The translations under genes and the position numbers were made by a program. Of a DNA stretch of 64,000 nucleotides, positions 5,814 through 63,153 are shown in pieces. The notes beneath the pieces are model-generated. The model saw nothing but the letters and a program-made list of their open reading frames with translations. It had not been told where the DNA came from and searched no databases. The number at the start of each line of letters is the position of its first letter. The first letter of the stretch is position 1. Source of the DNA: a virus (lineage: Duplodnaviria > Heunggongvirae > Uroviricota > Caudoviricetes); IMG/VR virus record IMGVR_UViG_3300033148_004507; one strand, written 5' to 3'.

Positions 5814-6223
5814 AAAGGGGGTCGGCCCAATATAAAAAATGGCGAGAATCTGTGTTGATTAGGGATGAATATACTTGTCAACATTGTGGATTTAAACCTC
5901 ATATCTTAGATATTGGTATCGTTGCTCACCATATATTAAATTATAAAACTTACCCTCTATACAGGTATGACTTGAATAATGGGTTAACATTATGTCATAA
6001 ATGTCATAGGAGACAACACCCAACCTGTATGGGTTCTAAATTTATTCTATATAAAAAAGTTATTGAATTTAAGAATGGCAAATGTGGTGTAGATGTACCG
6101 TTGCATTGGGCGGGAAGAAAGATATTGGTGTATAAAGTAGGTAAATATGGTTTAACTCTACCTACAAAAGATGAATGTATAATGATAGATTGCGGAGATA
6201 GTTATCTGGAAGGTGTGGAATGA
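5810..6223 (+). CDS. HNH endonuclease
   Basis: CQHCG...VAHHI...NNGLTLCHKCH: CxxC-HH-N-CxxCH HNH signature. Confidence 0.8.
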   Translation: MKRGSAQYKKWRESVLIRDEYTCQHCGFKPHILDIGIVAHHILNYKTYPLYRYDLNNGLTLCHKCHRRQHPTCMGSKFILYKKVIEFKNGKCGVDVPLHWAGRKILVYKVGKYGLTLPTKDECIMIDCGDSYLEGVE

Positions 6224-6957
6224 TGAAAATCGATACCAAGATAACTAAAATCATCAAGGATTCTGAGGTCATCAGCATCACCAATGTCGGTAGCCACTTA
6301 TGGGGTATGAACCACGAAAACAGTGATGTAGATTATGGTCTTATCTACGTGGCCCCAAGTAGAAACATATTGCGTGGCAATGCCTTCACAGAATCTAAGC
6401 AGGTTGAAATAGGTAATAATGATTGGACAATCCATGAGCTTGGAAAGACTGTGAACATGCTAATGAAAGGCAATGTAAACTATGTCTGGATTGTAACATC
6501 GCCGTTGTCTTTACTATCTACTCTTTATATCGAAGAATTAAAAAAATTATATTTGAATAATATGTCTGCTAACATTTATCACAATATCAAAGGATTGGCA
6601 AAACACAATTACAAGAAATATTTGGTTGAGGGGAGGCTAGCTGATGGTGAACCATATTCGAATCTTGATAAGAAACGAAAGATAATCATTCGCACTCTTA
6701 AATTCGGTATTAATCTACTGGATGGTAATGGGATAATATATGAGCCAGTGGAGGGCGAAGTTAACGATAATCTAGTTAGACAATTCATGGATAATCTGGA
6801 AAATGCATATGAGCATACATCATTGCCAGAGAATCCAGACCGTGAAAAATATTATGATTATTTGGAAGATGTAAGAAGATACTTGTGTCAGCGACCACTC
6901 CGTGACTGGCATTGGTCAGGAGATGACTCTGAGAACTCAGACTCATGCGTTGATTAG
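6220..6957 (+). CDS. Pol-beta superfamily nucleotidyltransferase (minimal-NTase/KNTase-like, 245 aa); last ~25 codons lie inside the IscB-element left end
   Basis: GSHLWGMNHENSDVDYG = GSx9-11DxD NTase motif; size and helical C-terminal half resemble KNTase-type enzymes. Confidence 0.6.
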   Translation: MMKIDTKITKIIKDSEVISITNVGSHLWGMNHENSDVDYGLIYVAPSRNILRGNAFTESKQVEIGNNDWTIHELGKTVNMLMKGNVNYVWIVTSPLSLLSTLYIEELKKLYLNNMSANIYHNIKGLAKHNYKKYLVEGRLADGEPYSNLDKKRKIIIRTLKFGINLLDGNGIIYEPVEGEVNDNLVRQFMDNLENAYEHTSLPENPDREKYYDYLEDVRRYLCQRPLRDWHWSGDDSENSDSCVD

Positions 6958-8339
6958 GAGGCGACAAGAAACATGAAAACTATGCAAAAGTTAGAAGGGC
7001 GAGATACATACACACCTACGGATGCTCCACAAGTCCGTAGCCACTGTGATTCTGTGATTAAACATGACTGCGAGGTAGGTGAAGTGTTACAGGATTTAAA
7101 AACCCTTTCTAACAACTCCGATGTGGACTTACTCCAGCATACAGGAGGGCTTAAGGCCACTGTGTATGCATATGTGCTAAACAAGAACGGGAAACCACTG
7201 ATGCCCTGCAAGCCTGCCAAAGCAAGGCATTTGTTGAAGGAAGGCAGGGCAGAGGTGGTCAATAGGACTCCCTTCACGATTCGCTTATTATGGGATTGTG
7301 AAGATAATGTGAAACCAATAACACTTGGCATCGATGCTGGATATGGCAAAGTTGGTTTTAGTGCCGTATCTGATAAGAAAGAATTGGTGTCTGGGGAACT
7401 GACTTTAAGGAAAGGCATCTCCAAACTGATAGAGCAGAGAAGTAACTATAGAAGGACACGAAGGAACAAACTCTGGCATCGGCCACCTAGATTCCTTAAC
7501 AGAGCTAAACATAAAGGCTGGCTTGCACCTAGCATCCAACACAAGCTTGACAGCCATGTAAGACTTATCGAACAGATGAAATCAATCTTGCCGATAACAA
7601 ATGTTATTGTCGAGGTTGCGAATTTTGACATCCAGAAGATAAAGAATCCAGACATTAAAGGAGTCGAATACCAACAAGGGGAGCAGATGGGCTTTTGGAA
7701 TGTTGGAATGTTCGAGAGTATGTCTTACACAGAGACAACCATACTTGTCAGCACTGTAAGGGTAAAAAGAAAGATAAGATATTACAGGTGCATCACATCA
7801 ATAGCAAGAAAGAGGGTGCTACAGATAGGCCAGAAGAGTTATTGACAGTCTGTAAGACCTGCCATGATGGGCATCATGATGGTATCGATATAATACCAAT
7901 GAAGGAAATCAAGAACTTCAAGCCAGAGACTTTCATGACGATGGTTCACTGGAAGCTCACAGAATTATTGGATTGTGAACACACGTTTGGTTATATCACA
8001 AAAACCAATAGAATTAAGCAAGGTCTTGAAAAGAGCCATGTCAATGATGCATTTATCATTGCGGGTGGGGCAAAGCAGGAACGGTGCTTGCCACATGATG
8101 TCAAGCAAGTAAGACGAAACAATAGGTCAATACAGATGAATCGAAAGGGTTACAAGCTAGCAATAAGAAGAAAAAGATATAAATTACAACCAAATGATTT
8201 AGTAAGGTTTGAGAGGGTCAAACGCCGAGTCAAAGGAGTACACTGTTATGGTTCAAGAGCAATATTAGATAATAAGAAATCAGTTGCAATAACTAAAATA
8301 AAGTTGATATGCTATGGTAAGGGGATATGTTATGTGTAA
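6880..8339 (+). mobile_element. IS200/IS605-type non-autonomous element carrying iscB (copy 1); left boundary approximate
   Basis: ~95 nt upstream of ATG 6973 (TCAxCGACCAC ... TCTGAGxAxTCAGACTxxTGCGTTGATTAGGAGGC) plus the entire ORF are repeated at 13230..14553; homology ends exactly at the stop codons; no tnpA present. Confidence 0.7.
6973..8339 (+). pseudogene. iscB: IscB (OMEGA RNA-guided nuclease, Cas9 ancestor), frameshifted by an 8-bp tandem duplication
   Basis: PLMP domain (NGKPLMPCKPAKARHL); RuvC-I ITLGIDAGYGKVGFSAV; Arg-rich bridge helix RSNYRRTRRNKLWHRPPRF; RuvC-II ITNVIVEVANFD; HNH CQHCKGK...QVHHIN...CKTCHDGHH; RuvC-III HVNDAFIIAGG. TGGAATGT duplicated at 7696-7703/7704-7711 splits the ORF into 6973..7845 and 7695..8339; removing one copy restores ...FWNVREYVLHRDNHTCQHC... 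in frame. Confidence 0.85.
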
Positions 8340-13229: not shown

Positions 13230-14553
13230 GAGCTTGGTAAGGGTGAGTCAACGACCACACAGAACAGAAATGGTCTGGGGGCGAGTCTGAGCAATCAGAC
13301 TTGTGCGTTGATTAGGAGGCAATGAAAAGAATGAAAACCATGCAGAAGTTAGACGGGAGAGATACATACACACCTACGGATGCTCCACAAGTCCGTAGCA
13401 ACTGTGATTCTGTGATTAAACATGACTGCGAGGTAGGTCAAGTGTTACAGAGTTTGAAAACCCCGTCTAACAACTCCGATGTGGACTTACTCCAGCATAC
13501 AGGAGGGCATAATGCCACTATGTATGCATATGTTATAAATAAGAATGGAAAACCACTGATGCCCTGCAAACCTGCCAAAGCAAGGCATCTATTGAAGCAA
13601 GGTAGAGCCAAAGTAATCAACAGGAAGCCATTTACAATCCGACTATTATGGGATTGTGAAGATAATGTGCAACCGATTACGCTAGGCATCGATGCAGGCT
13701 ATAGCAAAGTTGGTTTCAGTGCCGTGTCTGAGAGTAAGGAATTGATGTCTGGGGAGCTAACATTACGAAAAGGCATCAATAAACTCATCGAGCAGAAAAG
13801 CAACTATAGAAGAACAAGACGGAATAAACTTTGGCATCGCCCACCGAGATTCCTGAACAGAGCCAAACCAAAAGGTCGCCTACCTCCGAGCATCCAACAT
13901 AAGCTCGACAGCCATATTAGGCTTGTCGAACAAATGAAAGCAATCCTGCCGATAACAAATGTTATTGTCGAGGTTGCGAATTTTGACATCCAGAAGATAA
14001 AGAATCCAGACATTAAAGGAGTCGAATACCAACAAGGGGAGCAGATGGGCTTTTGGAATGTAAAACCTGTCATGAAGAGCATCATGCGGGTATTGATATA
14101 ATCTCAGCAGTGGCAATCAAGAACTTCAAGCCAGAAACCTTTATGACGGTGGTTAATTGGAAGCTTACAGAACTATTAAATTGTGAGCATACCTTTGGCT
14201 ACATCACGAAGCATAATAGGATTAAGCAAGGTCTTGCAAAGAGTCATGTAAATGATGCGTTTATAATTGCAAGAGGTCATAGTCAGGGGCGATGCAAATA
14301 TTATGAAGTCAATCAAACGAGGAGAAATAATAGAAGCATACAATTGAATCGAAAAGGCTATAAACCATCTATCAGAAGAAAAAGATATAAGCTCCAATCC
14401 AATGACTTAATTAGAGATTCACAAAACAACACTGTTCTGAGAGCAAAGGGTGTATGCTCATATGGGCGGTCAATAAAATTGGAAGATGGGAGATATACAA
14501 ATGTTAAAAATATAAAATTAATATGTTATGGTAAAGGGATATGCTATATATGA
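13230..14553 (+). mobile_element. IS200/IS605-type iscB element (copy 2), left boundary approximate
   Basis: direct repeat of 6880..8339 (by-eye ~85% identity); preceded by a 200-nt noncoding stretch 13121..13321. Confidence 0.7.
13322..14553 (+). pseudogene. iscB: IscB copy 2, inactivated by ~139-bp out-of-frame deletion removing the N-terminal half of the HNH domain
   Basis: same PLMP/RuvC-I/bridge/RuvC-II as copy 1, then ...FWNV | KTCHEEHH...HVNDAFIIARG; CQHCKGK...QVHHIN segment absent; ORF split into 13322..14101 and 14053..14553 at the same TGGAATGT site as copy 1. Confidence 0.8.
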
Positions 14554-15052: not shown

Positions 15053-15300
15053 AAGGTGTTGAAGCTGTAGTCAAATCCATGCTCTATGCACTGGTTGGTG
15101 TTATGGTAGTTATGGTTGTTATGTCATTCTACTTCATGTATTGCGCATATCGGGCATTTCAAATCGGAACCGATATTGGCAACTTTGTTGGTGGGGCATT
15201 GTTGGTACTGTCTGGGGCCATATTACTTGGGTCAATTGGAATCCAGCAATTTGTGTTCCCGTTGTTGGAGATTAAAACAGATGGTGGTGAAAAAGAATGA
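15049..15300 (+). CDS. small membrane protein
   Basis: 83 aa, 2-3 hydrophobic helices. Confidence 0.5.
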   Translation: MKGVEAVVKSMLYALVGVMVVMVVMSFYFMYCAYRAFQIGTDIGNFVGGALLVLSGAILLGSIGIQQFVFPLLEIKTDGGEKE

Positions 15301-15773
15301 AAATCCCAGATAGAATAAACTATAGTGCCTTGAACTTTCCGATATGTAATTTCGTGGTTCTTGAGGAGGCTGAGAGGTTGATAATACCTGATTACCAGAG
15401 AGATTATATCTGGTCTGATACTCAGAAGGGGTTGTTGATAGATAGCATCTTTAAAAGCATACCGATTGGCAATATATTCCTTAACGAGAGGGGTGGCAGT
15501 CCAGCCTATGAAATTATTGATGGTCAGCAAAGACTTACTACACTATTTAAGTTCATGAATGATGAGTTTGCTTACCAGGATGTGTACTACAGTGAATTGC
15601 CAGATAAGTACACTGCGAGGATAAGTCATTTCGTAGTCCAGACTTATATCACTTACTACACAGATGTTAAGGACATCCTCAGATTGTATTATGTATTGAA
15701 TTGGGCAGGGACACAACATAATGTGGAGGAGATGATTAAGCTTAAGAGGCAGGCGGGTGAAGAGGATGGATGA
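15297..15773 (+). CDS. DUF262 (ParB-like, GmrSD N-terminal-type) domain protein, stand-alone
   Basis: IIPDYQRDYIWSDTQKGLLIDSIFKSIPIGNIFL...EIIDGQQRLTTLFKF: canonical PxYQRxYxW and DGQQR motifs; no DUF1524/HNH nuclease partner domain. Confidence 0.8.
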   Translation: MKIPDRINYSALNFPICNFVVLEEAERLIIPDYQRDYIWSDTQKGLLIDSIFKSIPIGNIFLNERGGSPAYEIIDGQQRLTTLFKFMNDEFAYQDVYYSELPDKYTARISHFVVQTYITYYTDVKDILRLYYVLNWAGTQHNVEEMIKLKRQAGEEDG

Positions 15774-21444: not shown

Positions 21445-22553
21445 TGGCTGGAACCAGGCACTCATCGAAATTCTTCAAGCCTACTGAGAAGTTCTTGCAT
21501 TGGTTCAAGGGCTATGTTGGTAACACTCCCGTTACAGATGCAGGCTGTGGTACGGGCCACTTCGCCAAGGCTCTGAATGAAATCGGAGTGATAAAGATTC
21601 TCGGTCTTGAGATTTGGCCGTGTTCGAATCCAGAATACGATACAATCATTGGGCAGGATGCGACAACGTTTGCCTATTCACCAGGCTCTATAGTTACTAT
21701 AGTGCGACCAAATAGGGGTGAATGGATTCATAAGACCATAGAACAAGCCCTCTACACTGCCGAGCAGGTTGTGTACATCGGCTTGCCAAAGCATTGGGAG
21801 GATGACATCAGACCTTTGATTGGCGAATACGACATGTGGGATATTGTCGATAAGTATCTTCATGAACCTGTGGGTGAGGATGGCGAGTATGCTTACATCA
21901 TCAAGAAGAAGTCTGGCAACCCTAAAGAACCGATTATGCAACCTGTTATTGTAGAAGAGCCTGAAGAAACCTATCTGCCTCCAGTGAGGGGGATGATGAG
22001 GAAGAAAGATGCCCCTCCCAAATACATCCGAAAGCCAGCCAGCAAGAAAGGCAAGCCGTGTACTAAGTGTGGTGGTGAAAAATATTACGATGACGATAAT
22101 CCAGACGGCATGTGGTGTTATAACTGTGGTCTTGTAAACGTAACTGGCCTGAATTACAATGAAAAGTTCGATTTCAGTGAATATGAAAACGATGATGACG
22201 ATGGGTATTATTTGATTGGTGGTCGGAAAATCCAAATCCAGACCCTACTTAATTATCTCAGATTCAGAAGAGGGTCTGGGGCAGAACGTGTACTGTATCA
22301 CAAACTTGTACTGCTGGAGGCTGGCTTTGGGGAAAGGCATGGCGATAGCGATTACGATGTAGAAATAAGACGTAATAATAATTGGGTAGATTACTTCGAG
22401 AAGTGGATTGAAGCTTATATGGGCGACCCTCTTGGGGATATTGCATGGGAAAAGGCGAATCTTGATTATTGCTCGAAGTGTAACAAGGAAATTAAATTCG
22501 GGGATGCTAGGATGAACTATCCTTCAGGTGTTGTATGCATGGAGTGTGGATAA
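21420..22553 (+). CDS. class-I SAM-dependent methyltransferase domain fused to Cys-rich zinc-ribbon regions
   Basis: VTDAGCGTGHFAKAL (motif I) ... ILGLEI (motif II acidic); CTKCGGEKYY...CYNCG and CSKCNKE...CMECG; no DPPY/NPPY DNA-MTase motif IV seen. Confidence 0.6.
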   Translation: MASGVDTMMAGTRHSSKFFKPTEKFLHWFKGYVGNTPVTDAGCGTGHFAKALNEIGVIKILGLEIWPCSNPEYDTIIGQDATTFAYSPGSIVTIVRPNRGEWIHKTIEQALYTAEQVVYIGLPKHWEDDIRPLIGEYDMWDIVDKYLHEPVGEDGEYAYIIKKKSGNPKEPIMQPVIVEEPEETYLPPVRGMMRKKDAPPKYIRKPASKKGKPCTKCGGEKYYDDDNPDGMWCYNCGLVNVTGLNYNEKFDFSEYENDDDDGYYLIGGRKIQIQTLLNYLRFRRGSGAERVLYHKLVLLEAGFGERHGDSDYDVEIRRNNNWVDYFEKWIEAYMGDPLGDIAWEKANLDYCSKCNKEIKFGDARMNYPSGVVCMECG

Positions 22554-23224
22554 TGCAGAAATACTCTAAACCTTTGAGGATAAAGCATCATAAAATAAAT
22601 CTCAATCCTAAGAAGAGATACCTGGGTGACTCAGACGTTAAGAAACTACTCTCTGGAAAGGTCTATGTTGAGGAGAAGCTAGATGGCTCTCAGTGTGGGA
22701 TTGCGTTCAAGGGTGGCAAGCCAATCGTGTATACGAGAAATAGTCACTTATCAGAGTATGATAAAAGGGTGGCCTTCAAGGGTCTTTGGGATTGGGTATG
22801 GTCTAACTTAGATAAGGTTGAGAGCATACCGAAGGGATGTAGGCTGTGTGGGGAGTGGCTGTATGTTCAGCATCATGTTGTCTACGATAAGCTCCCAGAC
22901 TACTTTATGGCATTTGATATTCTGGATGAGAGGACTGGTAAACTATTGCCGTATAAGTCTAAGGTTGCCATATTCGAGGCTCTTGGAATTTCATATGCTC
23001 CACTTGTTTTAGAAGGCATGGCTACTAAAGATGATATTTTTGAGGCATCTCAGGGGTTCAGCAATTTCAGTACGGTGGATGCCAGAGAGGGCGTGGTTGT
23101 CAAGTCCGACAAGTCTGATTTCACAGGAAAACTTGTAGCCCAAGAATTTCTGGACGGCATTGAGGATGTCGGGCATTGGACATCTATAGTCACTGCGAGA
23201 TTTAATAAATTAGGGGTGGTATAG
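22553..23224 (+). CDS. minimal nucleotidyltransferase of the ATP-dependent ligase/capping-enzyme superfamily (RNA-ligase-like)
   Basis: motif I EEKLDGSQ (KxDG), motif III/IV region CGEWLY...FMAFDI, motif V EGVVVKSDKS; TAATG start at 22553. Confidence 0.6.
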   Translation: MQKYSKPLRIKHHKINLNPKKRYLGDSDVKKLLSGKVYVEEKLDGSQCGIAFKGGKPIVYTRNSHLSEYDKRVAFKGLWDWVWSNLDKVESIPKGCRLCGEWLYVQHHVVYDKLPDYFMAFDILDERTGKLLPYKSKVAIFEALGISYAPLVLEGMATKDDIFEASQGFSNFSTVDAREGVVVKSDKSDFTGKLVAQEFLDGIEDVGHWTSIVTARFNKLGVV

Positions 23225-30355: not shown

Positions 30356-30775
30356 TTATTTTCCGCCCTTGTTTGTGACGATTCTCTTTTTTATGTATGG
30401 ACAGCCCCTATTGATGATATACAAATCATCTCTTCCCCAATAATCATTTTTACATTGAGTATTATACAAAGGTTTGTGTGTGAAAATCAAAAAATTTTCA
30501 ACATCTCTAATTAATAATTTGGTGATTCTTTGATAATCTGATTTCTCAATATACCCTAACCAGAAAGATAATCCTTGTGTATTCATATCAAAATCTCGTA
30601 GGTTATTTTTAATTTCAGCAACCACATCCATGTGGTAGGCAATACCCATGTAGATTATTCCTCGCCCTCTTTGAAAAGCATAGAAATATGCATCCTCATA
30701 TTCTCTCAATTTACTATATGGTACTTTCACCCAATTAAGTGTCATTCCCTTTTTTGGTTTCACTTTTATTTTCAT
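30356..30775 (-). CDS. hypothetical protein (minus strand)
   Basis: start chosen at MKIKVKPKK preceded (in minus sense) by GGTGAGAGGTGG SD; track ORF extends to 30871. Confidence 0.45.
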   Translation of the reverse strand: MKIKVKPKKGMTLNWVKVPYSKLREYEDAYFYAFQRGRGIIYMGIAYHMDVVAEIKNNLRDFDMNTQGLSFWLGYIEKSDYQRITKLLIRDVENFLIFTHKPLYNTQCKNDYWGRDDLYIINRGCPYIKKRIVTNKGGK

Positions 30776-30921
30776 ATTCCACCTCTCACCGATATATGGA
30801 TGAGAAGCGAAAGGCATTTGGGGAAAGAGAATGGCTTGAATAATTAACAATAATAATTCTCCGCCCCTCACTTCTCAACATATGCATAATTTCGCACAAT
30901 ATAAATGTTTTTGACCATTTA

Positions 30922-31680
30922 TTAAGGCAACTCTTTTCTACAGCTCCCACAGAAATTGTAACCATTTGGATTGGTATCTCCGCAATACGGGCAAAACTTG
31001 TCTATCTTATCGTCTCCAGGTACTAAATTATCATTGTCGTCTATCTTATCATCATCGTACTCTTCCTCTGGTAATCCATATTTTGCAATAAGCTCTGCAC
31101 CAACTGAAACAAGAATTCCACCTATGACACATAGCACCCATCCATATCTTAAGCCTAGTATACTCATTGCTTCGCCAAATGAAATGTCATTAGAAAGAGA
31201 AACAATGTAGAATCCATGTATTAAAACACCTTGGGAAATCAAAGCGATTAAGAATCCTCCAAGATATAGCAATCTACACACATAATATTCTCTTACGGAT
31301 AGAACAATCATGAATAGTATGGCACATAATCCTGCAATCATTGGTAAAAAGTCAAGATACCAGATGTCAAAATAAAGACCAATATTCCATCCAGTAATCC
31401 CACCATAAATTCCATTATAAAATGGCTCAGACATCCCTCTAAAGAATAATATGATTCCAAAGAAGCCAACAGCAGTGCCTATCACAAGAAAAATTGGAGT
31501 TTCTCTATCACCAAAAACTATAGTCTCTTCTTTGACAGACTCATCAGATACAATCATTAAAAACCCAAATATACATAAAAGAAATGATATAGGAAAACTA
31601 ATGTCTACCCACCAGAATAAAAGGCATATTACTGCTAATATAAACATGAATGACCCGATTATACCCAGTTTAATCCTCAT
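30922..31680 (-). CDS. polytopic membrane protein with C-terminal zinc ribbon
   Basis: 6-7 TM helices; C-term FCPYCGDTNPNGYNFCGSCRK; GGTGA SD upstream. Confidence 0.6.
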   Translation of the reverse strand: MRIKLGIIGSFMFILAVICLLFWWVDISFPISFLLCIFGFLMIVSDESVKEETIVFGDRETPIFLVIGTAVGFFGIILFFRGMSEPFYNGIYGGITGWNIGLYFDIWYLDFLPMIAGLCAILFMIVLSVREYYVCRLLYLGGFLIALISQGVLIHGFYIVSLSNDISFGEAMSILGLRYGWVLCVIGGILVSVGAELIAKYGLPEEEYDDDKIDDNDNLVPGDDKIDKFCPYCGDTNPNGYNFCGSCRKELP

Positions 31681-31694
31681 CTCTTCACCGTAAC

Positions 31695-32324
31695 CTAGTC
31701 ATCAAACCTCTTATTTCGTTTATTGACTGCATATAATGGAACTATAATTGCAGGTAATATCGCCATAGTACACACTTCCCCACCAGTATCTTCTCCACCA
31801 GTATCTCCACTAGAACCTCCTCCTGTGTCATCTCCTGTAATAACCACAGTATCATCACCGTTATCCACGACAGAATCCTTGATTATCTGGATAGTGTAGG
31901 TGTATTCCTTAGTGGTTGCAATATCCCATTCAGACCACACACCTTCTTCTGATGCAATTACTTCGATTGTAGCTATATGACTTCCAATATCTACTTGGAA
32001 TTCACTAGGCACAGTTACTTCCCAGGAGAAAGTATAGCTATTCCCTGCTTCTACAATAACACTCGTTTGACTGGATGTATAGCCAGTCATAGCTAAATTC
32101 CAATCAAAAAATAGGTGTACTCTCTCAACCCTCAATGATTCAGAATATGTGTTTGTCAGTACGTATTTAAAAGTATACGCATAATTATTCTTGATACCCT
32201 CTGTTGGCTCTAGTGTTCCAGATACTTCCCATTTATCATATCCCTCAACTGGAATGGCTATTATAATCATTCCTAGGATTATTAGCCAAACTACAATGAA
32301 TCCATATTTTCCCACGATTCTCAC
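31695..32324 (-). CDS. secreted/surface-anchored protein (signal peptide, Gly/Asp/Thr linker, C-terminal TM)
   Basis: N-term FIVVWLIILGMIIIAIPV, DTGGGSSGDTGGEDTGG linker, MAILPAIIVPLYAV + NKRNKR tail; GTG start. Confidence 0.55.
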   Translation of the reverse strand: MRIVGKYGFIVVWLIILGMIIIAIPVEGYDKWEVSGTLEPTEGIKNNYAYTFKYVLTNTYSESLRVERVHLFFDWNLAMTGYTSSQTSVIVEAGNSYTFSWEVTVPSEFQVDIGSHIATIEVIASEEGVWSEWDIATTKEYTYTIQIIKDSVVDNGDDTVVITGDDTGGGSSGDTGGEDTGGEVCTMAILPAIIVPLYAVNKRNKRFDD

Positions 32325-32348
32325 CTAATCGCCTAATGCTGGAAAACT

Positions 32349-32372
32349 ATTTTAAAGTATCCATACGGTACG
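32349..32372 (+). promoter_or_regulatory. promoter-cassette variant GGAAAACTATTTTAAAGTAT in divergent intergenic region
   Basis: resembles GCAAAACTATTTATACT; ~45 nt upstream of GTG/ATG 32415-32420. Confidence 0.4.
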
Positions 32373-32414
32373 CATACCACAGAATACCACATATAGAGAA
32401 AGGACAATCTGGAA

Positions 32415-32606
32415 GTGATGCCAAAGGAATCAAAACGCTATAAATACAAAACAGTAACACTTCCAGAGCCACTCATGGAAGAAATCAAACAATTCATTGA
32501 TGACCATCCCGAACTAGGATATGGTAGTGTTACTGAGTTCATTAAAGAGGCATCTCGTGGTCAAATGAAAGAGTATTATCTTATTATGAAGATGAAGATG
32601 AAGTAG
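32415..32606 (+). CDS. ribbon-helix-helix (CopG/Arc-like) DNA-binding protein
   Basis: KRYKYKTVTLPEPLMEEIKQFIDDHPELGYGSVTEFIKEA = beta-strand + two helices typical of RHH regulators. Confidence 0.55.
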   Translation: MMPKESKRYKYKTVTLPEPLMEEIKQFIDDHPELGYGSVTEFIKEASRGQMKEYYLIMKMKMK

Positions 32607-32655
32607 TTTTGACCACAAAATCGATATATAGTCGTAATCGTTTTAGCAAAGCTAT

Positions 32656-33417
32656 ATGGCTGAAGAAAATGAAGAATGGGAAGAAATGAATAATAAAATA
32701 AAAAGAAAATTAAGTAAAGAAAATGAAGCATTAAGAAGAGAGAATAATAATTTAACTAGAGAGAACATGCAATTGAAAAAAGATAATATTGCTTACAGAG
32801 GGCAGTATAATCTTATTGATGATAGATTTTATGAAATTAATAGTCCAGAGTTGGAAGAATCAGTTATTCATAAAATTTCTGAAGAATTGATAGATGCTTT
32901 AATAAAATGCGATAAATTAGATAATGATGAATATCTATCAAGATATATGCAGATGTATATGGATAAGCCAGATGGGGATTATTATGTGTTCAATTGGGAT
33001 AAGGCAAAGAAACCAGAAAGGTTACATCGGGGAGCTTATAAATTTCTTTTATCACAACTGCCAGAGCAATTACATTTCAAGCAAGAGAGAGAATCTTCAT
33101 TGTCACATTTAGGTAAAGGTGAAAGTCCGAATGAAAGTGACATAATAGGAATTTTAACTTATTTAGATGTAGATATTGCAAAGGGAGAAAGGGGAGCATG
33201 GAATGATTTTTGGATTGATATTATATATGCAAATATAGACAATAAATTAGGATTAAAACAATCTGATATGGTTCAGAAAAGCAAAGATAATTCTCATTCA
33301 TGGGGAAAAGAACCTATTAGGCTCGCTGTAAAAACCTTAAAAGAAAATGGCCTGTTGAAGAAAAAAGGAAGTCGTTATATTATTGATAAAACAAATCTAA
33401 AGATAATCTGTAAATAA
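32656..33417 (+). CDS. hypothetical protein with N-terminal coiled coil
   Basis: 253 aa; KENEALRRENNNLTRENMQLKKDN. Confidence 0.5.
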   Translation: MAEENEEWEEMNNKIKRKLSKENEALRRENNNLTRENMQLKKDNIAYRGQYNLIDDRFYEINSPELEESVIHKISEELIDALIKCDKLDNDEYLSRYMQMYMDKPDGDYYVFNWDKAKKPERLHRGAYKFLLSQLPEQLHFKQERESSLSHLGKGESPNESDIIGILTYLDVDIAKGERGAWNDFWIDIIYANIDNKLGLKQSDMVQKSKDNSHSWGKEPIRLAVKTLKENGLLKKKGSRYIIDKTNLKIICK

Positions 33418-33419
33418 GT

Positions 33420-35200
33420 TGGACTCCTCTTCTGAAGTTGGAAAAAAGTTGTTATTTTGTTGGAAAAAAGTTGTTTTTTACACCATAATTTTGAATTATA
33501 TGGAAATAATCTGTAAATTCACATCCAGTTTAAATGCTATAAGTTTCATAAGATTATATCGCAGTCAAGAAGATTGGTGGCCTCTCGGTGAATGTCGTAT
33601 ACTATATCGAGGCTTCTTGACTGCTCTAAATCATTAAGGTGATTCCTGTAAACGAAGATGATGATGATTATGACAGCAAAACCATAAACGGCAAATGGCT
33701 ACGAAAATGTTATGCTTTACCTATTCAAACTCAACGAAAGTTGACAGATTACCAGAATGACTTAAATAATGTCAATCTGCATAGAATTAAAGTGAGGCCA
33801 GATTATTTGCGTAACCTGACCTCTGGAGCTGATAAGATGTGTTCAACAAAGTTATCAACCCCGAAGAAAGCTATGGATGAAGAGACAAATAAAAGTTTCC
33901 ATACGTTAGTCTATATGAATCCAACAGGCTTCGCTGAGGGGGAAAGTGAGCCAGGTATAAGAATGACAGTTGTAGGGAGTGAATACCCTACCTTTTATCA
34001 AAGTTTTTGGACTGAGCCAGACTTTAGTAACCCGACCAATGACAATCCGATGAGAGCATCCGAATTCTTGAGTAAACTGAATTTGGATAACGTATTAGAT
34101 GCCATTGGTCAGAAATATGGAAATAAAAAATGGCATTTCAGGTATCCTCCTGAAGCCATGATTAAGGCTTTGGTGTTCAAGTACATCAAAGGTTTGAGGC
34201 ACGATACACGCCTAGTAAGATACTTAAAAGCCCATCCCGAAGAGGCGAAATTACTAGGATTCATTGAAGTAAAAGGTGAATTGAAAATACCGAGCCAACA
34301 GACATTCAATCATTTTGTCTTGGCGAGGTTGAGGAATGAAGGATTATATGACATATTTGATAGCCTTGTATTAGAACTCAAGGATAAGATGAGTATGCTC
34401 GGTCTGCAACTGGGTAAAACTGTGTCTGTTGATTCAACGCCTTTATCGAGTATGAAGAATGACAAAGATGCTAAATACAATCCGCATTATGACATTAAAG
34501 GATATAAAGTACATAATGTGATAGATGCAGATTTCTTCCTTCCACTTGCCTTAAATTTCACTACTGCGATAGATGGGGATTCGCCACAGTATCTCCCATT
34601 GTTAGACAGATTACACACGATGGGATTTGATTTTGGGACGATTCTTGCAGATGGAGCTTATGCTTCTCTTGAACATTTTGCAATTGTACATCGGTATTAC
34701 AGAGCCAAAGCCATTTTCAAATTGAAGAAAAATAATCGTATAAGAAAAGAAGGAACATTGAAAGGAATTAAGAAGAGATATGAATCATTATGGAAAAAAG
34801 ATGGATACAAGCCAGATGCAGGAATAGATTACATGCTAGCATTCCTTTATTTTCAAGGTGATATTAAAGCGGTTGGAAGCTATTATCATAACAAGCATTT
34901 TGTGGACTGGACAAATAATTACGATGAGAAAAAGAAGGAATTTAATCAAAGGGCAGGAATAGAGGCGTTTCATGGGCATTTAAAGTATCAGATGAACCTT
35001 GAGATATTTCTTGATAAGAAAGGCATTAGAAACGCTGAAATGCACGTTCAATTGACGTATATCTCATTACTGTGCGTGGCTCTGTGCAGAGTTCAGCATG
35101 GAGTTACTGAGGGTCTTGTGAATGTGAAGTGTCTTGTTTAGGCACTTCTTCTTTATTTTTTTAAAAAATGCAAAGATTAAAGAATAGATTAAGTATTTCC
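33420..35200 (+). mobile_element. IS4/IS5-superfamily insertion sequence (boundaries approximate, terminal IRs not confidently identified)
   Basis: single DDE transposase ORF; upstream tandem TTGGAAAAAAGTTGTT x2 at 33447-33485. Confidence 0.5.
33639..35141 (+). CDS. DDE transposase, IS4/IS5 superfamily
   Basis: N-term FRYPPEAMIKALVFKYIKGL; catalytic VSVDSTP (D), ILADGAYAS (D), NQRAGIEAFHGHLK (R-x3-E-x6-K). Confidence 0.8.
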   Translation: MIPVNEDDDDYDSKTINGKWLRKCYALPIQTQRKLTDYQNDLNNVNLHRIKVRPDYLRNLTSGADKMCSTKLSTPKKAMDEETNKSFHTLVYMNPTGFAEGESEPGIRMTVVGSEYPTFYQSFWTEPDFSNPTNDNPMRASEFLSKLNLDNVLDAIGQKYGNKKWHFRYPPEAMIKALVFKYIKGLRHDTRLVRYLKAHPEEAKLLGFIEVKGELKIPSQQTFNHFVLARLRNEGLYDIFDSLVLELKDKMSMLGLQLGKTVSVDSTPLSSMKNDKDAKYNPHYDIKGYKVHNVIDADFFLPLALNFTTAIDGDSPQYLPLLDRLHTMGFDFGTILADGAYASLEHFAIVHRYYRAKAIFKLKKNNRIRKEGTLKGIKKRYESLWKKDGYKPDAGIDYMLAFLYFQGDIKAVGSYYHNKHFVDWTNNYDEKKKEFNQRAGIEAFHGHLKYQMNLEIFLDKKGIRNAEMHVQLTYISLLCVALCRVQHGVTEGLVNVKCLV

Positions 35201-35208
35201 TAATTTCT

Positions 35209-35724
35209 ATGTGCGAAAGAAAGAAAAGGCAATTATTAAATTTAATAGAAGTTCTTCTCGAAGATATTGAGAAAAATAAAGATGAATGGAACTTACCTAC
35301 CGATGATTCAGATACGCGTGAAGTGGAAGCATGGAATAGTGTACTCGCAATCCAAACAAAACAGCTTAATGATATTGTGAATAACGTTAGAAAGATGTAT
35401 GAAAATGATGAAACTTATGAATTATTAGGAGGGGTCAGGGTGCAGGAGATGATGTCATTTACACAACTATATCTCCCTGCACGAAAACTCTATGCTTTTG
35501 TGAAACATGATATTGAATATGAAGAAAACATTGAATTAAAATGGTTAAAAAATAGATATGAAGAATTAGGCATGTGGCAGAAGAAATTAGAGAAAGACAT
35601 CAAAGGTGTGCCAAATCGAGAAGAATGGGATGATTTTACACAGATGATGGAAGCCACCCTTGAGAATATCCAGACAAAAATTAATGAATTGGAAGAACTA
35701 TCTAAGAGAGGACTTGATTTGTAG
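35209..35724 (+). CDS. hypothetical coiled-coil protein
   Basis: 171 aa, helical/acidic. Confidence 0.45.
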   Translation: MCERKKRQLLNLIEVLLEDIEKNKDEWNLPTDDSDTREVEAWNSVLAIQTKQLNDIVNNVRKMYENDETYELLGGVRVQEMMSFTQLYLPARKLYAFVKHDIEYEENIELKWLKNRYEELGMWQKKLEKDIKGVPNREEWDDFTQMMEATLENIQTKINELEELSKRGLDL

Positions 35725-35744
35725 TGTAATTGAAGGTTACTAAT

Positions 35745-35865
35745 TAGCACTGAAATTTCAAGACAAATTCATAAGTTTTATATAGGTTACTAATTAGAGT
35801 CAAATCTATATTGAAATTGATACCTTTTTATAGGCTACTAATTAAAATCTACTAATTGGTAACCC
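35745..35865 (+). promoter_or_regulatory. four CTAATTAG-family sites (GGTTACTAATTAG x2, GGCTACTAATTAA, CTACTAATTGGTAACC) with TTTTATATA boxes
   Basis: CTAATTAG is itself an 8-bp palindrome; sites at 35750, 35790, 35838, 35852; upstream of phosphatase gene. Confidence 0.5.
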
Positions 35866-35958
35866 TCGTCGTTGATGACTATATTGGAAGGTCAATGATA
35901 TATCTAAGATTAGATAGGGTTGACACAGGGGAAGTTGAGTATGTGAGGGTGAATTAAT

Positions 35959-36345
35959 ATGGCAGATGAAATAATACACAATCTCTGGCTAGGAGATTTG
36001 GATGATGCCAACGAGGTTTGCAGGGCCGAGTATGACCATGTAATCAACGTGCTTGGAATCATAGAGCCAGATGACGAGACAGGAAAGGTGGATGTGGATG
36101 TTGTAAATGCAATATCATTCTTAATAAAGAAGATGCTGGACGTGGACAAGAGAATACTTGTGCATTGCGGTGCTGGCATGGAGAGAAGCCCATTGGCTGT
36201 TGCCTGGTATCTCTGGAAGCATGAGGATTTTAAGAGCCTGGACGATGCGTACAGGTTCATAAAATCCAAGAGGCAGTTAATTATGCATTGTGGTCATTGG
36301 GTATCGTGGGGGGATGTGCATGGCAAAATGTTGTCCGAACTGTAA
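35959..36345 (+). CDS. dual-specificity protein phosphatase
   Basis: VHCGAGMERSPLAVAWYL = HCx5R(S) P-loop; N-term NLWLGDL like DUSP. Confidence 0.8.
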   Translation: MADEIIHNLWLGDLDDANEVCRAEYDHVINVLGIIEPDDETGKVDVDVVNAISFLIKKMLDVDKRILVHCGAGMERSPLAVAWYLWKHEDFKSLDDAYRFIKSKRQLIMHCGHWVSWGDVHGKMLSEL

Positions 36346-36583
36346 GGTGTGCTTGACATCTGCTGACGAACCATTTGATGAGAAATGCCCGTATTGCGGT
36401 GGCGATTTAGATGGGTAAGGGCAGGCGTAACGGTAGCCGACACTTGCCAGACATGATGGGCTGTCGTACCAGGGGTCACAGGCCACAGTTGTATTGTGCA
36501 GATTGCGGTGAGAAGGTTGGGTATGATGATAAGCCTTGTTCAGTGTGTCATTCGTCCAGGGTGAAGTGGTGAGATTTAGTTTT

Positions 36584-36634
36584 GATAGCAAAACCATTAT
36601 ATACTGTTGGAGCATACTAAGTGACGGTGATAAC
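36584..36634 (+). promoter_or_regulatory. promoter/RBS cassette copy
   Basis: GATAGCAAAACCATTATATACT...GTGACGGTGATAACATG; 60 nt from ATACTAAGTGACGG through GGAGCAGGC identical to 42045 copy. Confidence 0.6.
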
Positions 36635-36856
36635 ATGACAGGCGACAAGGATTCAACTGGAAATGGAGCAGGCAAGGCGAAGGCAATAAACCATGAAACA
36701 CAGAGAAAGGGCGACCCGAAATTCAAAGTATCTTTTTATGTACATGATGCAGGTGAGGACATGTTGAGAGAATGGATTGCTTCACTACTTGATAAAGAAT
36801 CATCTTTTAGACCAGGGGATACGATGGACAGAATAGAGATAGAAGAGGTGGTCTAA
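36635..36856 (+). CDS. hypothetical protein MTGDKDSTGNGAG..., ends EEVV
   Basis: ATG 36635 at cassette end (track ORF 36536 is an upstream extension). Confidence 0.55.
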   Translation: MTGDKDSTGNGAGKAKAINHETQRKGDPKFKVSFYVHDAGEDMLREWIASLLDKESSFRPGDTMDRIEIEEVV

Positions 36857-54299: not shown

Positions 54300-54504
54300 T
54301 TATGATGACATCTGCGAATGTGTAATAGTTCATACATCTCCATCGGAGGATGCTCTATTAAAGAGTAAGGAATCAGATGGAGGTGTCTATCTGATGGCAT
54401 ATGTGAAGATGCTTTTCACTGATGGCAGACCACATTGCTCTGATGTGGATTGCATTAAATGTGATGGCACAGGAGATAAGAATAACAGAAGGAGGAATAA
54501 TTAA
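54292..54504 (+). CDS. Cys-rich mini-protein
   Basis: ATG 54292; CECVIVH...CSDVDCIKCDGTG. Confidence 0.4.
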   Translation: MIDYDDICECVIVHTSPSEDALLKSKESDGGVYLMAYVKMLFTDGRPHCSDVDCIKCDGTGDKNNRRRNN

Positions 54505-54764
54505 TGATACCAAAATCGGAAGATATGGAACGTCAGTTCGAATGGAGTCGGTGTGCGTGTGGTTGCCACACAACATATGCAGAAAAGAAAGGGGCATTGC
54601 CTTTGAGGTTGCAGGATTTTCAGGATATTCAAGAATGGGCGACAGAGAACATCAATGATATAATCGAGGGGGCAATTAAACATGCCGTCTGTCTTGAGGA
54701 GTTCCCCGATAGTGAGGAATGGGATGAATGCTCATGCGATGAAGAGCCAGAGGAGGGTGATTGA
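54504..54764 (+). CDS. hypothetical acidic protein
   Basis: 86 aa. Confidence 0.45.
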   Translation: MIPKSEDMERQFEWSRCACGCHTTYAEKKGALPLRLQDFQDIQEWATENINDIIEGAIKHAVCLEEFPDSEEWDECSCDEEPEEGD

Positions 54765-54938
54765 ATGGTTGAAATAGACAACGAGGTATTTACCAGGATA
54801 GTATTTTTAGTTGGTGCAGAAACGATACGGCAGATTACACAACAGAAATTTATAAGTTCTGAGATGGAGATGATAAATCAACTATTATCAAAAACACTCG
54901 ATGATTTGCCAGATGAGGGAGATAAAGGAGATGATTAA
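54765..54938 (+). CDS. 57-aa hypothetical (not in track)
   Basis: ATG right after upstream TGA; TAA 54936-54938 then ATG 54939. Confidence 0.35.
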   Translation: MVEIDNEVFTRIVFLVGAETIRQITQQKFISSEMEMINQLLSKTLDDLPDEGDKGDD

Positions 54939-55445
54939 ATGGTGTACAGCGATTATCAGAAGATAGATAGCAGTAAAGAGGATAAGAAATATTGGAAGCA
55001 TCATGAAACCAGGCTTTTAAAGGAAGTCAAGGAATTAGGTCTAAAAGAGGACTTCGACCACAACCAACCGATGAAGAAAGAAGAAAGGATAGGTAGGGAT
55101 GGAAAGATGAGGATTGTAGAAGTCCCATCACCTCACGGGCGGGGTACGAATCCAAATAAGTGGTGGATAGGAAAGACTACATGTTCATTGTACACTCCTG
55201 CCGAGTTCAAGAAAATGAAGGGGTACAGGATAAGACATCCTGGCGATGGAACGAATATGTTTAAGCCCGAAAGTAAGGGTATATCGACATGCTCCCATCT
55301 TGACCATTACAATAAGTTGAAGGGTCGAGTGATAGCACTTGAGAGGGCAATCTGGGACTATTTGAGATGCCCAGAGTGCGAGGTGGAGCATCTTGAAAAG
55401 GGCCACAGTGAAGCACATCTTCCATATATTCTCATGGAGGATTAA
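54939..55445 (+). CDS. hypothetical protein
   Basis: 168 aa; C-terminal CPECEVEH. Confidence 0.5.
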   Translation: MVYSDYQKIDSSKEDKKYWKHHETRLLKEVKELGLKEDFDHNQPMKKEERIGRDGKMRIVEVPSPHGRGTNPNKWWIGKTTCSLYTPAEFKKMKGYRIRHPGDGTNMFKPESKGISTCSHLDHYNKLKGRVIALERAIWDYLRCPECEVEHLEKGHSEAHLPYILMED

Positions 55446-55447
55446 GA

Positions 55448-55579
55448 ATGGGTGAGATATTTAGAACAAGCGAGTATGAGTGTAATAAGTGTGGTTATAA
55501 GTTTTTAGCACAGGAACCGCACCCATGTCCAAAGTGCCAGAAGGAAGAATTTGAGCAATGGAAATCGAAGGAGGAATAA
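55448..55579 (+). CDS. 43-aa zinc-ribbon mini-protein (not in track)
   Basis: CNKCGY...CPKCQ. Confidence 0.4.
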   Translation: MGEIFRTSEYECNKCGYKFLAQEPHPCPKCQKEEFEQWKSKEE

Positions 55580-55581
55580 TC

Positions 55582-56028
55582 ATGGTAGACAAGATTGGAT
55601 TTTATATCAGAAAGAAAGAGTATGGGTTCTTATCGAACTTTCATAGGGCCGAGCAGACGATTGACGGCATTACATATCCTACCAACGAGCATTATTATCA
55701 GTCCATGAAGGCCAAGGATGGGGATGTCAGAAAGTGGATAGCATCCTCTCCGAAGGCGTTCCAGGCTATGAAAGCAGGTCGTTCATTGAGGGACAAAGAG
55801 ATGGTGGATGATTGGGACGGCTACAAGCTCGAAATCATGCAGAAGGGTCTTATGGCTAAGTTCGCTCAGAACTCTGGCTTGGCTCGGATGCTCATAGAGA
55901 CTGGTGATGCGGATTTATTTGAGGATAGTCCAACAGATATGTTTTGGGGTGGTCGGCTTGAGGGTAGTAAAAACTACCTGGGGCATCTGCTCATGATTGT
56001 CCGTGAAGAACTCATGCGTGGTGAGTAA
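55582..56028 (+). CDS. NADAR (YbiA/DUF1768-like) domain protein
   Basis: FYIRKKEYGFLSNFHRAEQTIDGITYPTNEHYYQSMKA closely matches YbiA/NADAR core (GFLSNF ... YPTxEHYFQAxKF). Confidence 0.8.
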   Translation: MVDKIGFYIRKKEYGFLSNFHRAEQTIDGITYPTNEHYYQSMKAKDGDVRKWIASSPKAFQAMKAGRSLRDKEMVDDWDGYKLEIMQKGLMAKFAQNSGLARMLIETGDADLFEDSPTDMFWGGRLEGSKNYLGHLLMIVREELMRGE

Positions 56029-56030
56029 TC

Positions 56031-56153
56031 ATGGAAAGAAACTGGACTGTGGTTTTCGAAGTTATAGAAGCATACAACTGCGAAACTAAAGAAGAGGCTA
56101 TCCAGAAGGTAATCGACCAATATGGTGATGTTGACATAGTGATGGTGTCGTGA
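56031..56153 (+). CDS. 40-aa hypothetical (not in track)
   Basis: ATG 56031 right after TAA; TGA 56151-56153 overlaps next start. Confidence 0.3.
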   Translation: MERNWTVVFEVIEAYNCETKEEAIQKVIDQYGDVDIVMVS

Positions 56154-56770
56154 TGGTGGGTTGTAAATCATCCAACGACTCAATTCGAGAACAGAGATTG
56201 AAGCAACGCAAAAGAGTGGAAATCTACTTGATAATCACGGTTATTATAGTTGCTGTAGTTAGGTATGTAATGAGGGTAGATGATGGATATATGTTCGGCC
56301 TGGTGGATGGGGTGGTAGTCGGGGCAATCTTGGCATTTATATTATCATATCACTCGGATACAAAGAAAGAGATTGAGAACTGTTCAGATGGAGATAAAGA
56401 GGTCGAGAATAAAAGAAAAGATGAAGAGTGGGCTAAAAAATCGTTGGTGAAAAAGGAATATGGTTTCAAAGATTCTCTTTGGGCAATAGGATACTTAAGC
56501 AAAATGCTGATAACCACTAGCTTAGTAGTGATTTTAATATTTGCCCCTATTATTCTTTGGGGTAGTGCCAAACCGCCAAATTCGATATATTATTCAATTA
56601 TAATATTGGTGTTCGCTATTTTAGGGTGCATCCTTATTATCGGTAATTATGTAGTAATGCCAATATGGGAATCCATTGAGAACTGTTGGGGTCAAGAGAG
56701 ATTGGAGATGATTTGGAAAGAGAATCCAATCAAACAAATACGAATGTATGTGCTGGAGTGTAAAACATGA
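56153..56770 (+). CDS. polytopic membrane protein
   Basis: 4 hydrophobic helices; ATG 56153 in-frame in track ORF 56150. Confidence 0.5.
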   Translation: MVGCKSSNDSIREQRLKQRKRVEIYLIITVIIVAVVRYVMRVDDGYMFGLVDGVVVGAILAFILSYHSDTKKEIENCSDGDKEVENKRKDEEWAKKSLVKKEYGFKDSLWAIGYLSKMLITTSLVVILIFAPIILWGSAKPPNSIYYSIIILVFAILGCILIIGNYVVMPIWESIENCWGQERLEMIWKENPIKQIRMYVLECKT

Positions 56771-57168
56771 ATGAGGTGATTATAGCAGGCAAGCGAGGTG
56801 GTAAAATGAACGAAATTATGGAAAAGGCTCTGGAGGAGAAAGAAAAAGGCAATGATGTAACCTTGATATGGGACGAGGCTGGAGTATCTTCTAAGGTAGC
56901 GGGGATAGAGAAACCAATCTTGATAACTAAGGATGATTGCCTGAACTGTGACTTTGTGAAGAAGAAAGTAGCTGACAAGCTTGATGGTGTTGAGGTTGTT
57001 AATGCCGATGAAGTTCAAGGAAAAGTTTACATGGCATATTATCAAATTTATGGTAAGATGGAGATGGACAGCAAGCTTCAATTCCCGTTCCTGATAACTG
57101 AGAAAGAGGACGTGGTTCATGGGACAATTGCCATCAAGAATCACATACTAAAAAGGAGTGATAGGTAA
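56767..57168 (+). CDS. possible thioredoxin/glutaredoxin-fold CxxC protein
   Basis: KPILITKDDCLNCDFVKKKV ... FPFLI resembles Grx/NrdH-like CxxC in beta-alpha context; tentative. Confidence 0.35.
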   Translation: MNEVIIAGKRGGKMNEIMEKALEEKEKGNDVTLIWDEAGVSSKVAGIEKPILITKDDCLNCDFVKKKVADKLDGVEVVNADEVQGKVYMAYYQIYGKMEMDSKLQFPFLITEKEDVVHGTIAIKNHILKRSDR

Positions 57169-57362
57169 TGACAGAATACAATACAATATGCGATTATTGC
57201 GGAGATGAGATAGAAGAAGGTGGCGAGATAGTGACTGTTGAGTGCGGTGTTGCAGAGTTCAACTATATTGGTGGTGATAAGGTACTGCTCAATCAAGGCT
57301 CCGAGATTGATAAAGTGTATCATCTTAACTGTGCCAAGAGGATTACACTGTTAAAACATTAG
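57168..57362 (+). CDS. zinc-ribbon mini-protein
   Basis: CDYCGDE...ECG...CAK. Confidence 0.45.
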   Translation: MTEYNTICDYCGDEIEEGGEIVTVECGVAEFNYIGGDKVLLNQGSEIDKVYHLNCAKRITLLKH

Positions 57363-62928: not shown

Positions 62929-63153
62929 ATGCCTGAACACATTAAGTCATGCCCCTTCTGTGGGGCGAAAGAAGTCGAGATTGCGAGAACGAATGAGAAT
63001 GCTTGTTGGGTGGAATGTGCTTCATGCGGAGCTTCATCACCATCAACGAAGAAGAGGGAAGATGCGATAGCGATATGGAATGAGAGGCATTTGCCAAGTG
63101 GAATATCTGCGACAATCGTTTATGACATGGATGCAGAGCAAAGGAGTCGATAG
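62929..63153 (+). CDS. zinc-ribbon mini-protein
   Basis: CPFCGAKE...CWVECASCGA. Confidence 0.5.
   Translation: MPEHIKSCPFCGAKEVEIARTNENACWVECASCGASSPSTKKREDAIAIWNERHLPSGISATIVYDMDAEQRSR

Follow-up and report, generated by a model that had tools for sequence, protein, structure and literature searches.

A 64,000-nucleotide stretch of viral DNA (IMG/VR record IMGVR_UViG_3300033148_004507, below called the window) contains an open reading frame (ORF) at 55582..56028 that is a genuine NADAR gene: the match of its product to this family lies far above chance. By alignment with characterized homologues, the protein retains the complete set of catalytic and ligand-binding residues and is a core-only NADAR of the YbiA type, rather than a DarG1-type antitoxin or a member of the AdfN family of phage T4. 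What is said below about its activity as an enzyme, its physiological substrate and an anti-defense role is inferred from comparison with published NADARs.

The Gene and Its Family

Read directly from the sequence, the ORF runs from an ATG at 55582 to a TAA at 56026–56028 and codes for 148 amino acids (aa). A longer in-frame alternative begins at 55558. We consider this earlier start unlikely, because a Shine–Dalgarno-like motif directly precedes 55582, because the public gene call also gives a product of 148 aa and because the homologues start likewise.

55582..56028, + strand: NADAR gene, YbiA type, core domain only, 148 aa (assigned by PF08719, TIGR02464 and identity to YbiA)
55570..55575, + strand: Shine–Dalgarno-like GGAGGA, 6 nt 5' of the NADAR ATG (read from the sequence)

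The Pfam profile PF08719 (NADAR) matches the 148-aa protein with an E-value of 4.3e-30 and 105.6 bits (gathering score 35.1), and the alignment covers positions 2–162 of the 163 in the profile. The domain occupies residues 5–144, which makes this a single-domain protein. It also matches PHROG phrog_1017, a family of unknown function, with an E-value of 6e-34. Among proteins of solved structure, E. coli YbiA (2B3W) scores 88.7 bits and a NADAR from Phytophthora (8BAU) scores 42.6 bits. Since the alignment to 2B3W extends from end to end, the protein is predicted to adopt the YbiA fold, an α-helical core with two small β-hairpins. Its predicted isoelectric point (pI) of 6.3 is near neutral. The initial annotation of this DNA had recognized a strong match to the YbiA/NADAR core from two motifs, which we locate at residues 15–20 (GFLSNF) and 32–40 (YPTNEHYYQ), and had proposed to check the match by a hidden Markov model search; PF08719 bears it out over the whole domain. 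The single-domain architecture and the viral gene context also agree with the earlier description of a stand-alone NADAR on a virus-like element.

Active Site and Subfamily

The residues of the viral protein were mapped through an alignment to 8BAU and through a nine-sequence alignment (A3) that includes E. coli YbiA, a NADAR from Tequintavirus and gp30.3 (AdfN) from phage T4. The roles of the corresponding residues in PnNADAR were taken from Schuller et al. 2023 (PMC11543638).

55687..55689, + strand: Glu36 codon; equivalent to E43 of PnNADAR, E88 of the E. coli C7 protein and E36 of T4 AdfN; invariant in A3
55708..55710, + strand: Lys43 codon; equivalent to K50 of PnNADAR, K95 of the C7 protein and K43 of T4 AdfN; invariant in A3
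55921..55923, + strand: Glu114 codon; equivalent to E125 of PnNADAR; the position by which the YbiA subfamily is defined
55936..55947, + strand: Asp119 to Trp122 codons (D-M-F-W); Asp119 and Trp122 equivalent to the pyrophosphate contacts D130 and W133 of PnNADAR

Three further residues, R79, W89 and R93 of PnNADAR, correspond to R67, W78 and K82. The last exchange is conservative, and lysine also occupies this position in E. coli YbiA. The glutamate and the lysine of the E-x6-K helix and the ligands of the ADP-ribose pyrophosphate (R67, W78, K82, D119 and W122) are all kept. In AdfN, mutation of the residue equivalent to Lys43 abolishes function (PMC11257639).

The position equivalent to residue 125 of PnNADAR sorts the superfamily: it is occupied by Glu in YbiA, by Asp in the DarT1-linked BC4488 proteins and by His in T4-like phage NADARs (PMC11543638). 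The viral protein carries Glu, and several scores point in the same direction. It reaches 104.2 bits with TIGR02464 ("riboflavin biosynthesis intermediates N-glycosidase"), an NCBIfam equivalog-domain model with a cut-off of 73.7 bits. This is far below the score of YbiA itself (169.5 bits), while the Tequintavirus NADAR scores 69.6 bits and T4 AdfN gives no match. Identity to E. coli YbiA is 39% over 141 aa. Both proteins consist of the core without an N-terminal extension and share the same catalytic set, including the subfamily glutamate. They differ in setting: ybiA is chromosomal and lies in the LexA-controlled dinG/rhlE/ybiB neighborhood, whereas the gene described here is viral and placed elsewhere. 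YbiA is an N-glycosidase of riboflavin intermediates that also hydrolyzes guanine- and cytidine-linked ADP-ribose in vitro.

Four other assignments were rejected. The protein does not belong to the T4 AdfN/gp30.3 family: PF08010 gives 14.2 bits, below its cut-off of 36, and Glu114 stands where T4 has His. T4 AdfN is likewise a viral orphan, encoded in an early region, with Glu36 and Lys43 at identical positions, but overall identity is 23% with a local match of 52 aa, and AdfN appears adapted to hydroxymethylated DNA. Nor is the protein a DarG1-type antitoxin (BC4488 family), exemplified by the DarT1-associated NADARs of E. coli C7 and Geobacter lovleyi. These share the superfamily, the chemistry and the first-helix Glu and Lys with the viral protein, but they have an N-terminal β1-β2-α1 extension with a basic, putative groove for single-stranded DNA (ssDNA), which the near-neutral viral protein lacks. 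They also carry a catalytic Asp (D171 in E. coli C7) that replaces the conserved Glu and lies two residues before its position, where the viral sequence reads L112-F113-E114, and DarG1 adjoins a darT1 gene that is missing here. The third candidate, the anti-phage equivalog NF053876 (DS32_2), scores 63.4 bits against a cut-off of 240. The fourth, the PADLOC model PDC-M42C, gives 58 bits, attributable to the common domain alone, so that a DS32_2/PDC-M42 defense system was dismissed on score.

Proposed Function

NADARs hydrolyze the N-glycosidic bond between ADP-ribose and N2 of guanine (PMC11543638). All NADARs assayed, including YbiA and a phage enzyme, strip guanine-linked ADP-ribose from DNA and RNA in vitro, and they leave thymine-linked and phosphate-linked ADP-ribose in place (PMC11125620, PMC11833690). 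Cytidine-linked ADP-ribose is also removed by YbiA-type enzymes (PMC12945103). The premise of the initial annotation that NADARs reverse the modification of guanine by DarT toxins agrees with this literature (PMC11543638, PMC11125620). Because the full residue set is conserved, the viral protein can be expected with some confidence to hydrolyze base-linked ADP-ribose in vitro.

A precedent for the physiological role comes from Johannesman, Carlson, and LeRoux 2024 (PMC11257639), who showed that the orphan phage proteins T4 AdfN, NADAR-Bas32 and NADAR-Bas60 counter the defense system DarTG1. AdfN removes ADP-ribose from DNA. The Bas32 and Bas60 proteins are unrelated to AdfN, consist of a core of about 150 aa and also neutralize DarT1 in uninfected cells (PMC11257639). 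These two, from Markadamsvirinae and Vequintavirinae, respectively, resemble the protein described here in being viral, stand-alone, of similar length and conserved in the catalytic residues. The resemblance is distant, however: identity to the Tequintavirus NADAR, a stand-in for the Bas32 type that may differ from NADAR-Bas32 itself, is about 35%. In function, our protein can be compared with the orphan phage NADARs described in the literature, but it belongs to neither the AdfN nor the DarG1 family.

By analogy with these enzymes, we favor a role in counter-defense against host ADP-ribosyltransferases (ARTs), exerted on nucleic acid, and rate its chances as roughly even. A large virus would produce a soluble single-domain N-glycohydrolase from within a long operon of small genes. 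The protein would bind the ADP-ribose moiety through Arg67, Trp78, Lys82, Asp119 and Trp122. Glu36, Lys43 and Glu114 would then hydrolyze the N-glycosidic bond between ADP-ribose and the nucleobase (guanine N2, possibly cytosine) in ssDNA or RNA. In this way, the marks of a DarT1-type host defense would be erased from the viral nucleic acid, and replication and expression could continue. Such a role, the same as that of T4 AdfN and the Bas32 and Bas60 NADARs, is plausible. It is also supported by a gene for an anti-restriction protein in the same co-directional array:

62929..63153, 7 kb downstream of the NADAR gene: Lar-like restriction-alleviation gene, 74 aa (PF14354)

This gene is consistent with an early region around the NADAR gene that is rich in anti-defense functions.

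Several observations weigh against counter-defense on nucleic acid. Judged by the TIGR02464 scores, the viral protein resembles E. coli YbiA more closely than it resembles any of the phage NADARs validated against DarT1, and YbiA and the T4 NADAR, although active in vitro, did not relieve the toxic effect of DarT1 in cells (PMC11125620). The basic N-terminal extension, which is the proposed ssDNA binder of DarT1-linked NADARs, is absent, and the pI is not basic. Scans of the neighboring genes with Pfam, PHROGs, NCBIfam and PADLOC detected no ART family and no DarT. Finally, a large comparative study argued that the substrates of most phage NADARs are small ADP-ribose derivatives and not macromolecules (PMC9503650).

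This last point leads to an alternative in which nucleic acid is not the substrate at all. The enzyme might hydrolyze small ADP-ribose derivatives that TIR, sirtuin or ART enzymes produce from NAD+ as immune signals or toxins, or, like YbiA, reactive intermediates of the riboflavin pathway. The match to TIGR02464 and the position of YbiA as the best relative of solved structure agree with such a function, as do the neutral pI and the missing nucleic-acid-binding extension. Iyer et al. 2022 (PMC9503650) reasoned from the context of host immunity that phage NADARs act mainly on diffusible ADP-ribose derivatives, and the modeled product of the ORF upstream of the NADAR gene weakly matches a cyclic-nucleotide sponge (see below), which would fit a neighborhood directed against signaling. 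On the other hand, genes of the riboflavin, NAD-salvage, Macro, SLOG and Nudix kinds went undetected among 76 window ORFs, and neither these ORFs nor the neighbors show a fusion or linkage to RibA or RibD. A virus has no evident need for control of riboflavin damage. Degradation of an immune signal has so far been demonstrated for no NADAR, and all those tested, YbiA included, are active on base-linked ADP-ribose. We regard a small-molecule substrate as possible but rather doubtful.

Relatives in Other Viruses

A large protein collection contains 255 homologues of the viral NADAR at E ≤ 1e-10, the best of which, apart from the protein itself, is 69% identical. The closest relatives (53–69% identity) sit on virus-like contigs, and the clade is therefore one that is maintained in viruses. 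Relatives on long contigs have phage-like neighborhoods; those at loci L003, L004 and L015 contain a DNA polymerase III α subunit fused to uracil-DNA glycosylase, HNH endonucleases or DHH phosphoesterases. In a BLASTP comparison of the window ORFs with L003, the NADAR gene was the sole match, and the gene tables of L003–L006, L014 and L015 list no flanking Pfam family in common with the window and no ART.

Homologues are also widespread among annotated phage genomes. A tblastn search found them in 485 records, all below 60% identity, from phages of Streptomyces, Vibrio, Salmonella, Escherichia, Bacillus and other hosts. NADAR domains have been reported in 48% of medium and jumbo phages (Iyer et al. 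2022, PMC9503650). By these two figures, large viruses commonly carry a stand-alone NADAR.

In three relatives with 53–57% identity, a peptidyl-tRNA hydrolase gene (PTH2) lies about 0.7–1.1 kb downstream of the NADAR gene:

L004 7107..7475: PTH2 gene
L014 7143..7490: PTH2 gene
L015 7512..7886: PTH2 gene

L014 also contains a Ro60/TROVE gene and an eRF1/acVLRF1-like gene upstream, as well as a TFIIB gene. An association of NADAR with translation rescue seems to recur among the relatives but is absent from the window, where no PTH2 was detected.

These contexts bear on the idea that the enzyme controls damage to RNA or to translation, either by stripping base-linked ADP-ribose from tRNA, rRNA or mRNA or by processing a by-product of RNA repair. 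NADARs do reverse the ADP-ribosylation of guanosine on RNA (PMC11833690), the superfamily was first linked to RNA-repair contexts (PMC11543638, PMC9503650), and the window itself encodes two proteins of RNA repair:

22535..23224: RNA ligase (PF09414, 92 bits)
6220..6957: RlaP nucleotidyltransferase (PF10127, 52 bits)

These two genes lie apart from each other and 32–49 kb from the NADAR gene, outside its unit. Moreover, NADARs are inactive on RNA that carries ADP-ribose on a phosphate end, the product of Tpt1/KptA-type enzymes (PMC11833690). Together with the missing PTH2, these points make a role in RNA damage control unlikely.

Gene Block and Immediate Neighbors

The NADAR gene is part of a compact block. 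Because the ORFs are co-directional and separated by very small gaps, the NADAR protein is almost certainly translated from a polycistronic message.

54504..57362, + strand: nine co-directional ORFs including the NADAR gene, with gaps of −4 to +2 nt (junction table)
54939..55445, + strand: 168-aa ORF, co-transcribed neighbor, neither an ART nor a conserved partner
55448..55579, + strand: 43-aa zinc-ribbon ORF (CxxC...CxxC) with weak zinc-ribbon Pfam matches; its stop lies 2 nt before the NADAR start

Shine–Dalgarno-like motifs precede most ORFs of the block, as they do 80 of the 110 + strand ORFs of the window. A scan for consensus promoters and terminators gave hits at chance level and defines no operon boundaries.

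The zinc-ribbon ORF may be functionally linked to the NADAR gene that it adjoins, but at least two CxxC motifs occur in 19 of the 110 window genes, so that the adjacency could be due to chance. Two NADAR relatives (P0004 and L013 10001..10585; 66% and 47% identity) have a Cys-rich CxxC...CxxC tail fused to their C-terminus.

The 168-aa ORF had been noted as unannotated in the initial annotation, and the description is accurate: the ORF is present and matches no Pfam, PHROG, NCBIfam or PADLOC family. Its relatives are few. Three homologues were found in a collection of 5.8 billion proteins, and HMMER, run in full against 1.84 billion representatives, returned ten relatives. A single-sequence AlphaFold2 (AF2) model was unusable (mean predicted local distance difference test, pLDDT, 40.7), whereas a model built from a 12-sequence alignment (A4) reached a pLDDT of 77.8 and a predicted template modeling score (pTM) of 0.69. 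There is a weak resemblance between this second model and the folds of the phage sponge Acb4 and of double-stranded RNA-binding domains. The conserved core of the family, G-x-S-x-C-S-x-L-D-x-F-N-K-x-x-G-R-V-I-A-x-E-R-A-I, recalls PF13876 and PF08962, and a few members give sub-threshold Pfam E-values of 0.01–0.05. Acb4 is a member of PF13876 (Phage_gp49_66) (PMC11722364). By sequence, however, membership of the 168-aa family in PF13876 or in the Acb4 group is not established, as all matches fall below threshold: PF13876 gives an E-value of 0.053 in one of the 12 members and does not match the consensus. A profile of the family found no sequence match in 9E4W, and a Foldseek search of the model against BFVD gave no significant match. 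An Acb4-like sponge or an RNA-binding protein is a weak lead that the model suggests for this ORF.

The earlier proposal that this ORF could be a partner of the NADAR gene, with an ART-like fold that structure prediction might reveal, did not hold. The predicted fold is not that of an ART, and no ART family matches the sequence. Because relatives of the ORF occur without a NADAR gene (L007, L018 and L019), the idea of an ART partner is unsupported, and an obligate partnership with NADAR was rejected on the same ground. These three relatives sit in viral replication or early regions. The pair is retained only in near-identical variants of the same virus (L002 and L008). The overall interpretation offered in the initial annotation is thus partly supported: the NADAR family and its viral carriage are borne out, an ART-like partner upstream is not.

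The same results bear on the possibility that the NADAR gene provides self-immunity against an ART of the virus itself, as an antitoxin in a YarT–YbiA or DarT1–NADAR pair. YbiA-type NADARs are indeed antitoxins to the ART YarT in myxobacteria (PMC11125620), and most of the neighboring ORFs have no recognizable family, which leaves room for a very divergent ART. Against this stand the scans of the neighbors, which returned no ART family, the fold modeled for the 168-aa ORF and the comparisons with L003 and with the gene tables of the other loci, in which no neighbor is conserved. We consider a self-immunity function highly improbable.

A broader reading would take the three adjacent genes in 54939..56028 as a small anti-immunity cassette, possibly of an archaeal virus, that consists of a very divergent Acb4-like nucleotide sponge extended at its N-terminus, a zinc ribbon and a YbiA-type NADAR, with the NADAR acting on a substrate other than DarT1-modified DNA. 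This speculative arrangement seems improbable to us. If it were real, the cassette would blunt host immunity based on NAD+ or nucleotides, and a new branch of sponge proteins would begin with the 168-aa protein.

The Viral Element

The G+C content of the window is about 40%, its GC skew is strongly positive, and almost all ORFs lie on the + strand. An identical NADAR protein is encoded on metagenome contigs of 84,152 and 126,219 bp from the Joint Genome Institute (JGI). Since about 62 kb of the 84-kb contig lie past the window's end, the element must measure at least about 126 kb. The next 10 kb beyond the window again contain small unknown ORFs and a DUF5131 gene.

We conclude with good confidence that the element is virus-like because nearly all of its ORFs lie on one strand, because it contains HNH endonucleases, YopX, Lar, DUF5131 and a match to a small-terminase PHROG, and because the contigs that carry the nearest NADAR relatives are phage-like. 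Genes for a capsid, a portal or a large terminase were not seen in the part of the element examined, and the window contains no tRNA genes. A megablast search with 12 kb around the NADAR gene found no nucleotide match in 50,697 phage records. IMG/VR yielded only a 47%-identical relative, and a NADAR scan of genomes gave nothing beyond a 2-kb contig assigned to a WOR-3 metagenome-assembled genome.

Recognizable families are few, and the ORFs of the element are almost entirely unannotatable. Beyond the genes already described, they include an SPFH/Band 7 protein and the following:

26..3382: PKD-repeat protein at the start of the window, 1118 aa with about 12 PKD repeats, a candidate adhesin or fiber, possibly truncated by the contig end
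5810..6223, 6973..7845 and 13322..14101: scattered HNH homing-type endonucleases, including two RRXRR copies
15297..15773: short ORF with only the GmrSD_N (DUF262) domain and no C-terminal nuclease domain
33639..35141: DDE transposase (DDE_Tnp_1/DUF772)

The PHROG scan assigned at least four window ORFs to the HNH family. A GmrSD_N gene of the same kind occurs at L006 896..1408, on a contig whose NADAR is 66% identical to the one described here. Several weak matches in the window are to DUF7xxx families, and TATA-like AAAACTATATATAC-type motifs stand before some window genes, for example before 24906 and 57499.

The transposase gene lies in an island of low G+C content (30356..36800; 34–36% versus about 42% elsewhere), which also contains the only run of ORFs on the − strand (three ORFs, 30356..32324). 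This island is probably an insertion. There are no convincing terminal inverted repeats at the boundaries of the insertion sequence, and its transposase has no relative in GTDB genomes.

Two contigs of relatives carry genes for proteins of information processing:

L014 7841..8827: TFIIB-type transcription factor; the NADAR of this contig is 57% identical
L018 7696..8553: PCNA-type clamp; this contig carries a relative of the 168-aa ORF

In view of these two genes, this group of viruses may infect archaea.

Implications

The hypothesis that orphan phage NADARs serve counter-defense is already published. For the gene described here, an anti-DarT1 role has a strong precedent but no novelty, because the same was shown for other phage NADARs (PMC11257639). 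The gene opens no new question; concept and chemistry, as well as the broad occurrence in phages, are on record. The surrounding element, with a size of at least 126 kb, its genes on one strand and almost all of them unannotatable, and with hints of an archaeal host from its relatives, may merit more attention than the NADAR gene itself. If the anti-defense role is correct, the gene would represent one more divergent, YbiA-like lineage of orphan NADARs that erases ADP-ribose, in this case in large uncultivated viruses. It would then help decide whether YbiA-type NADARs, the physiological substrate of which is debated, can serve counter-defense.

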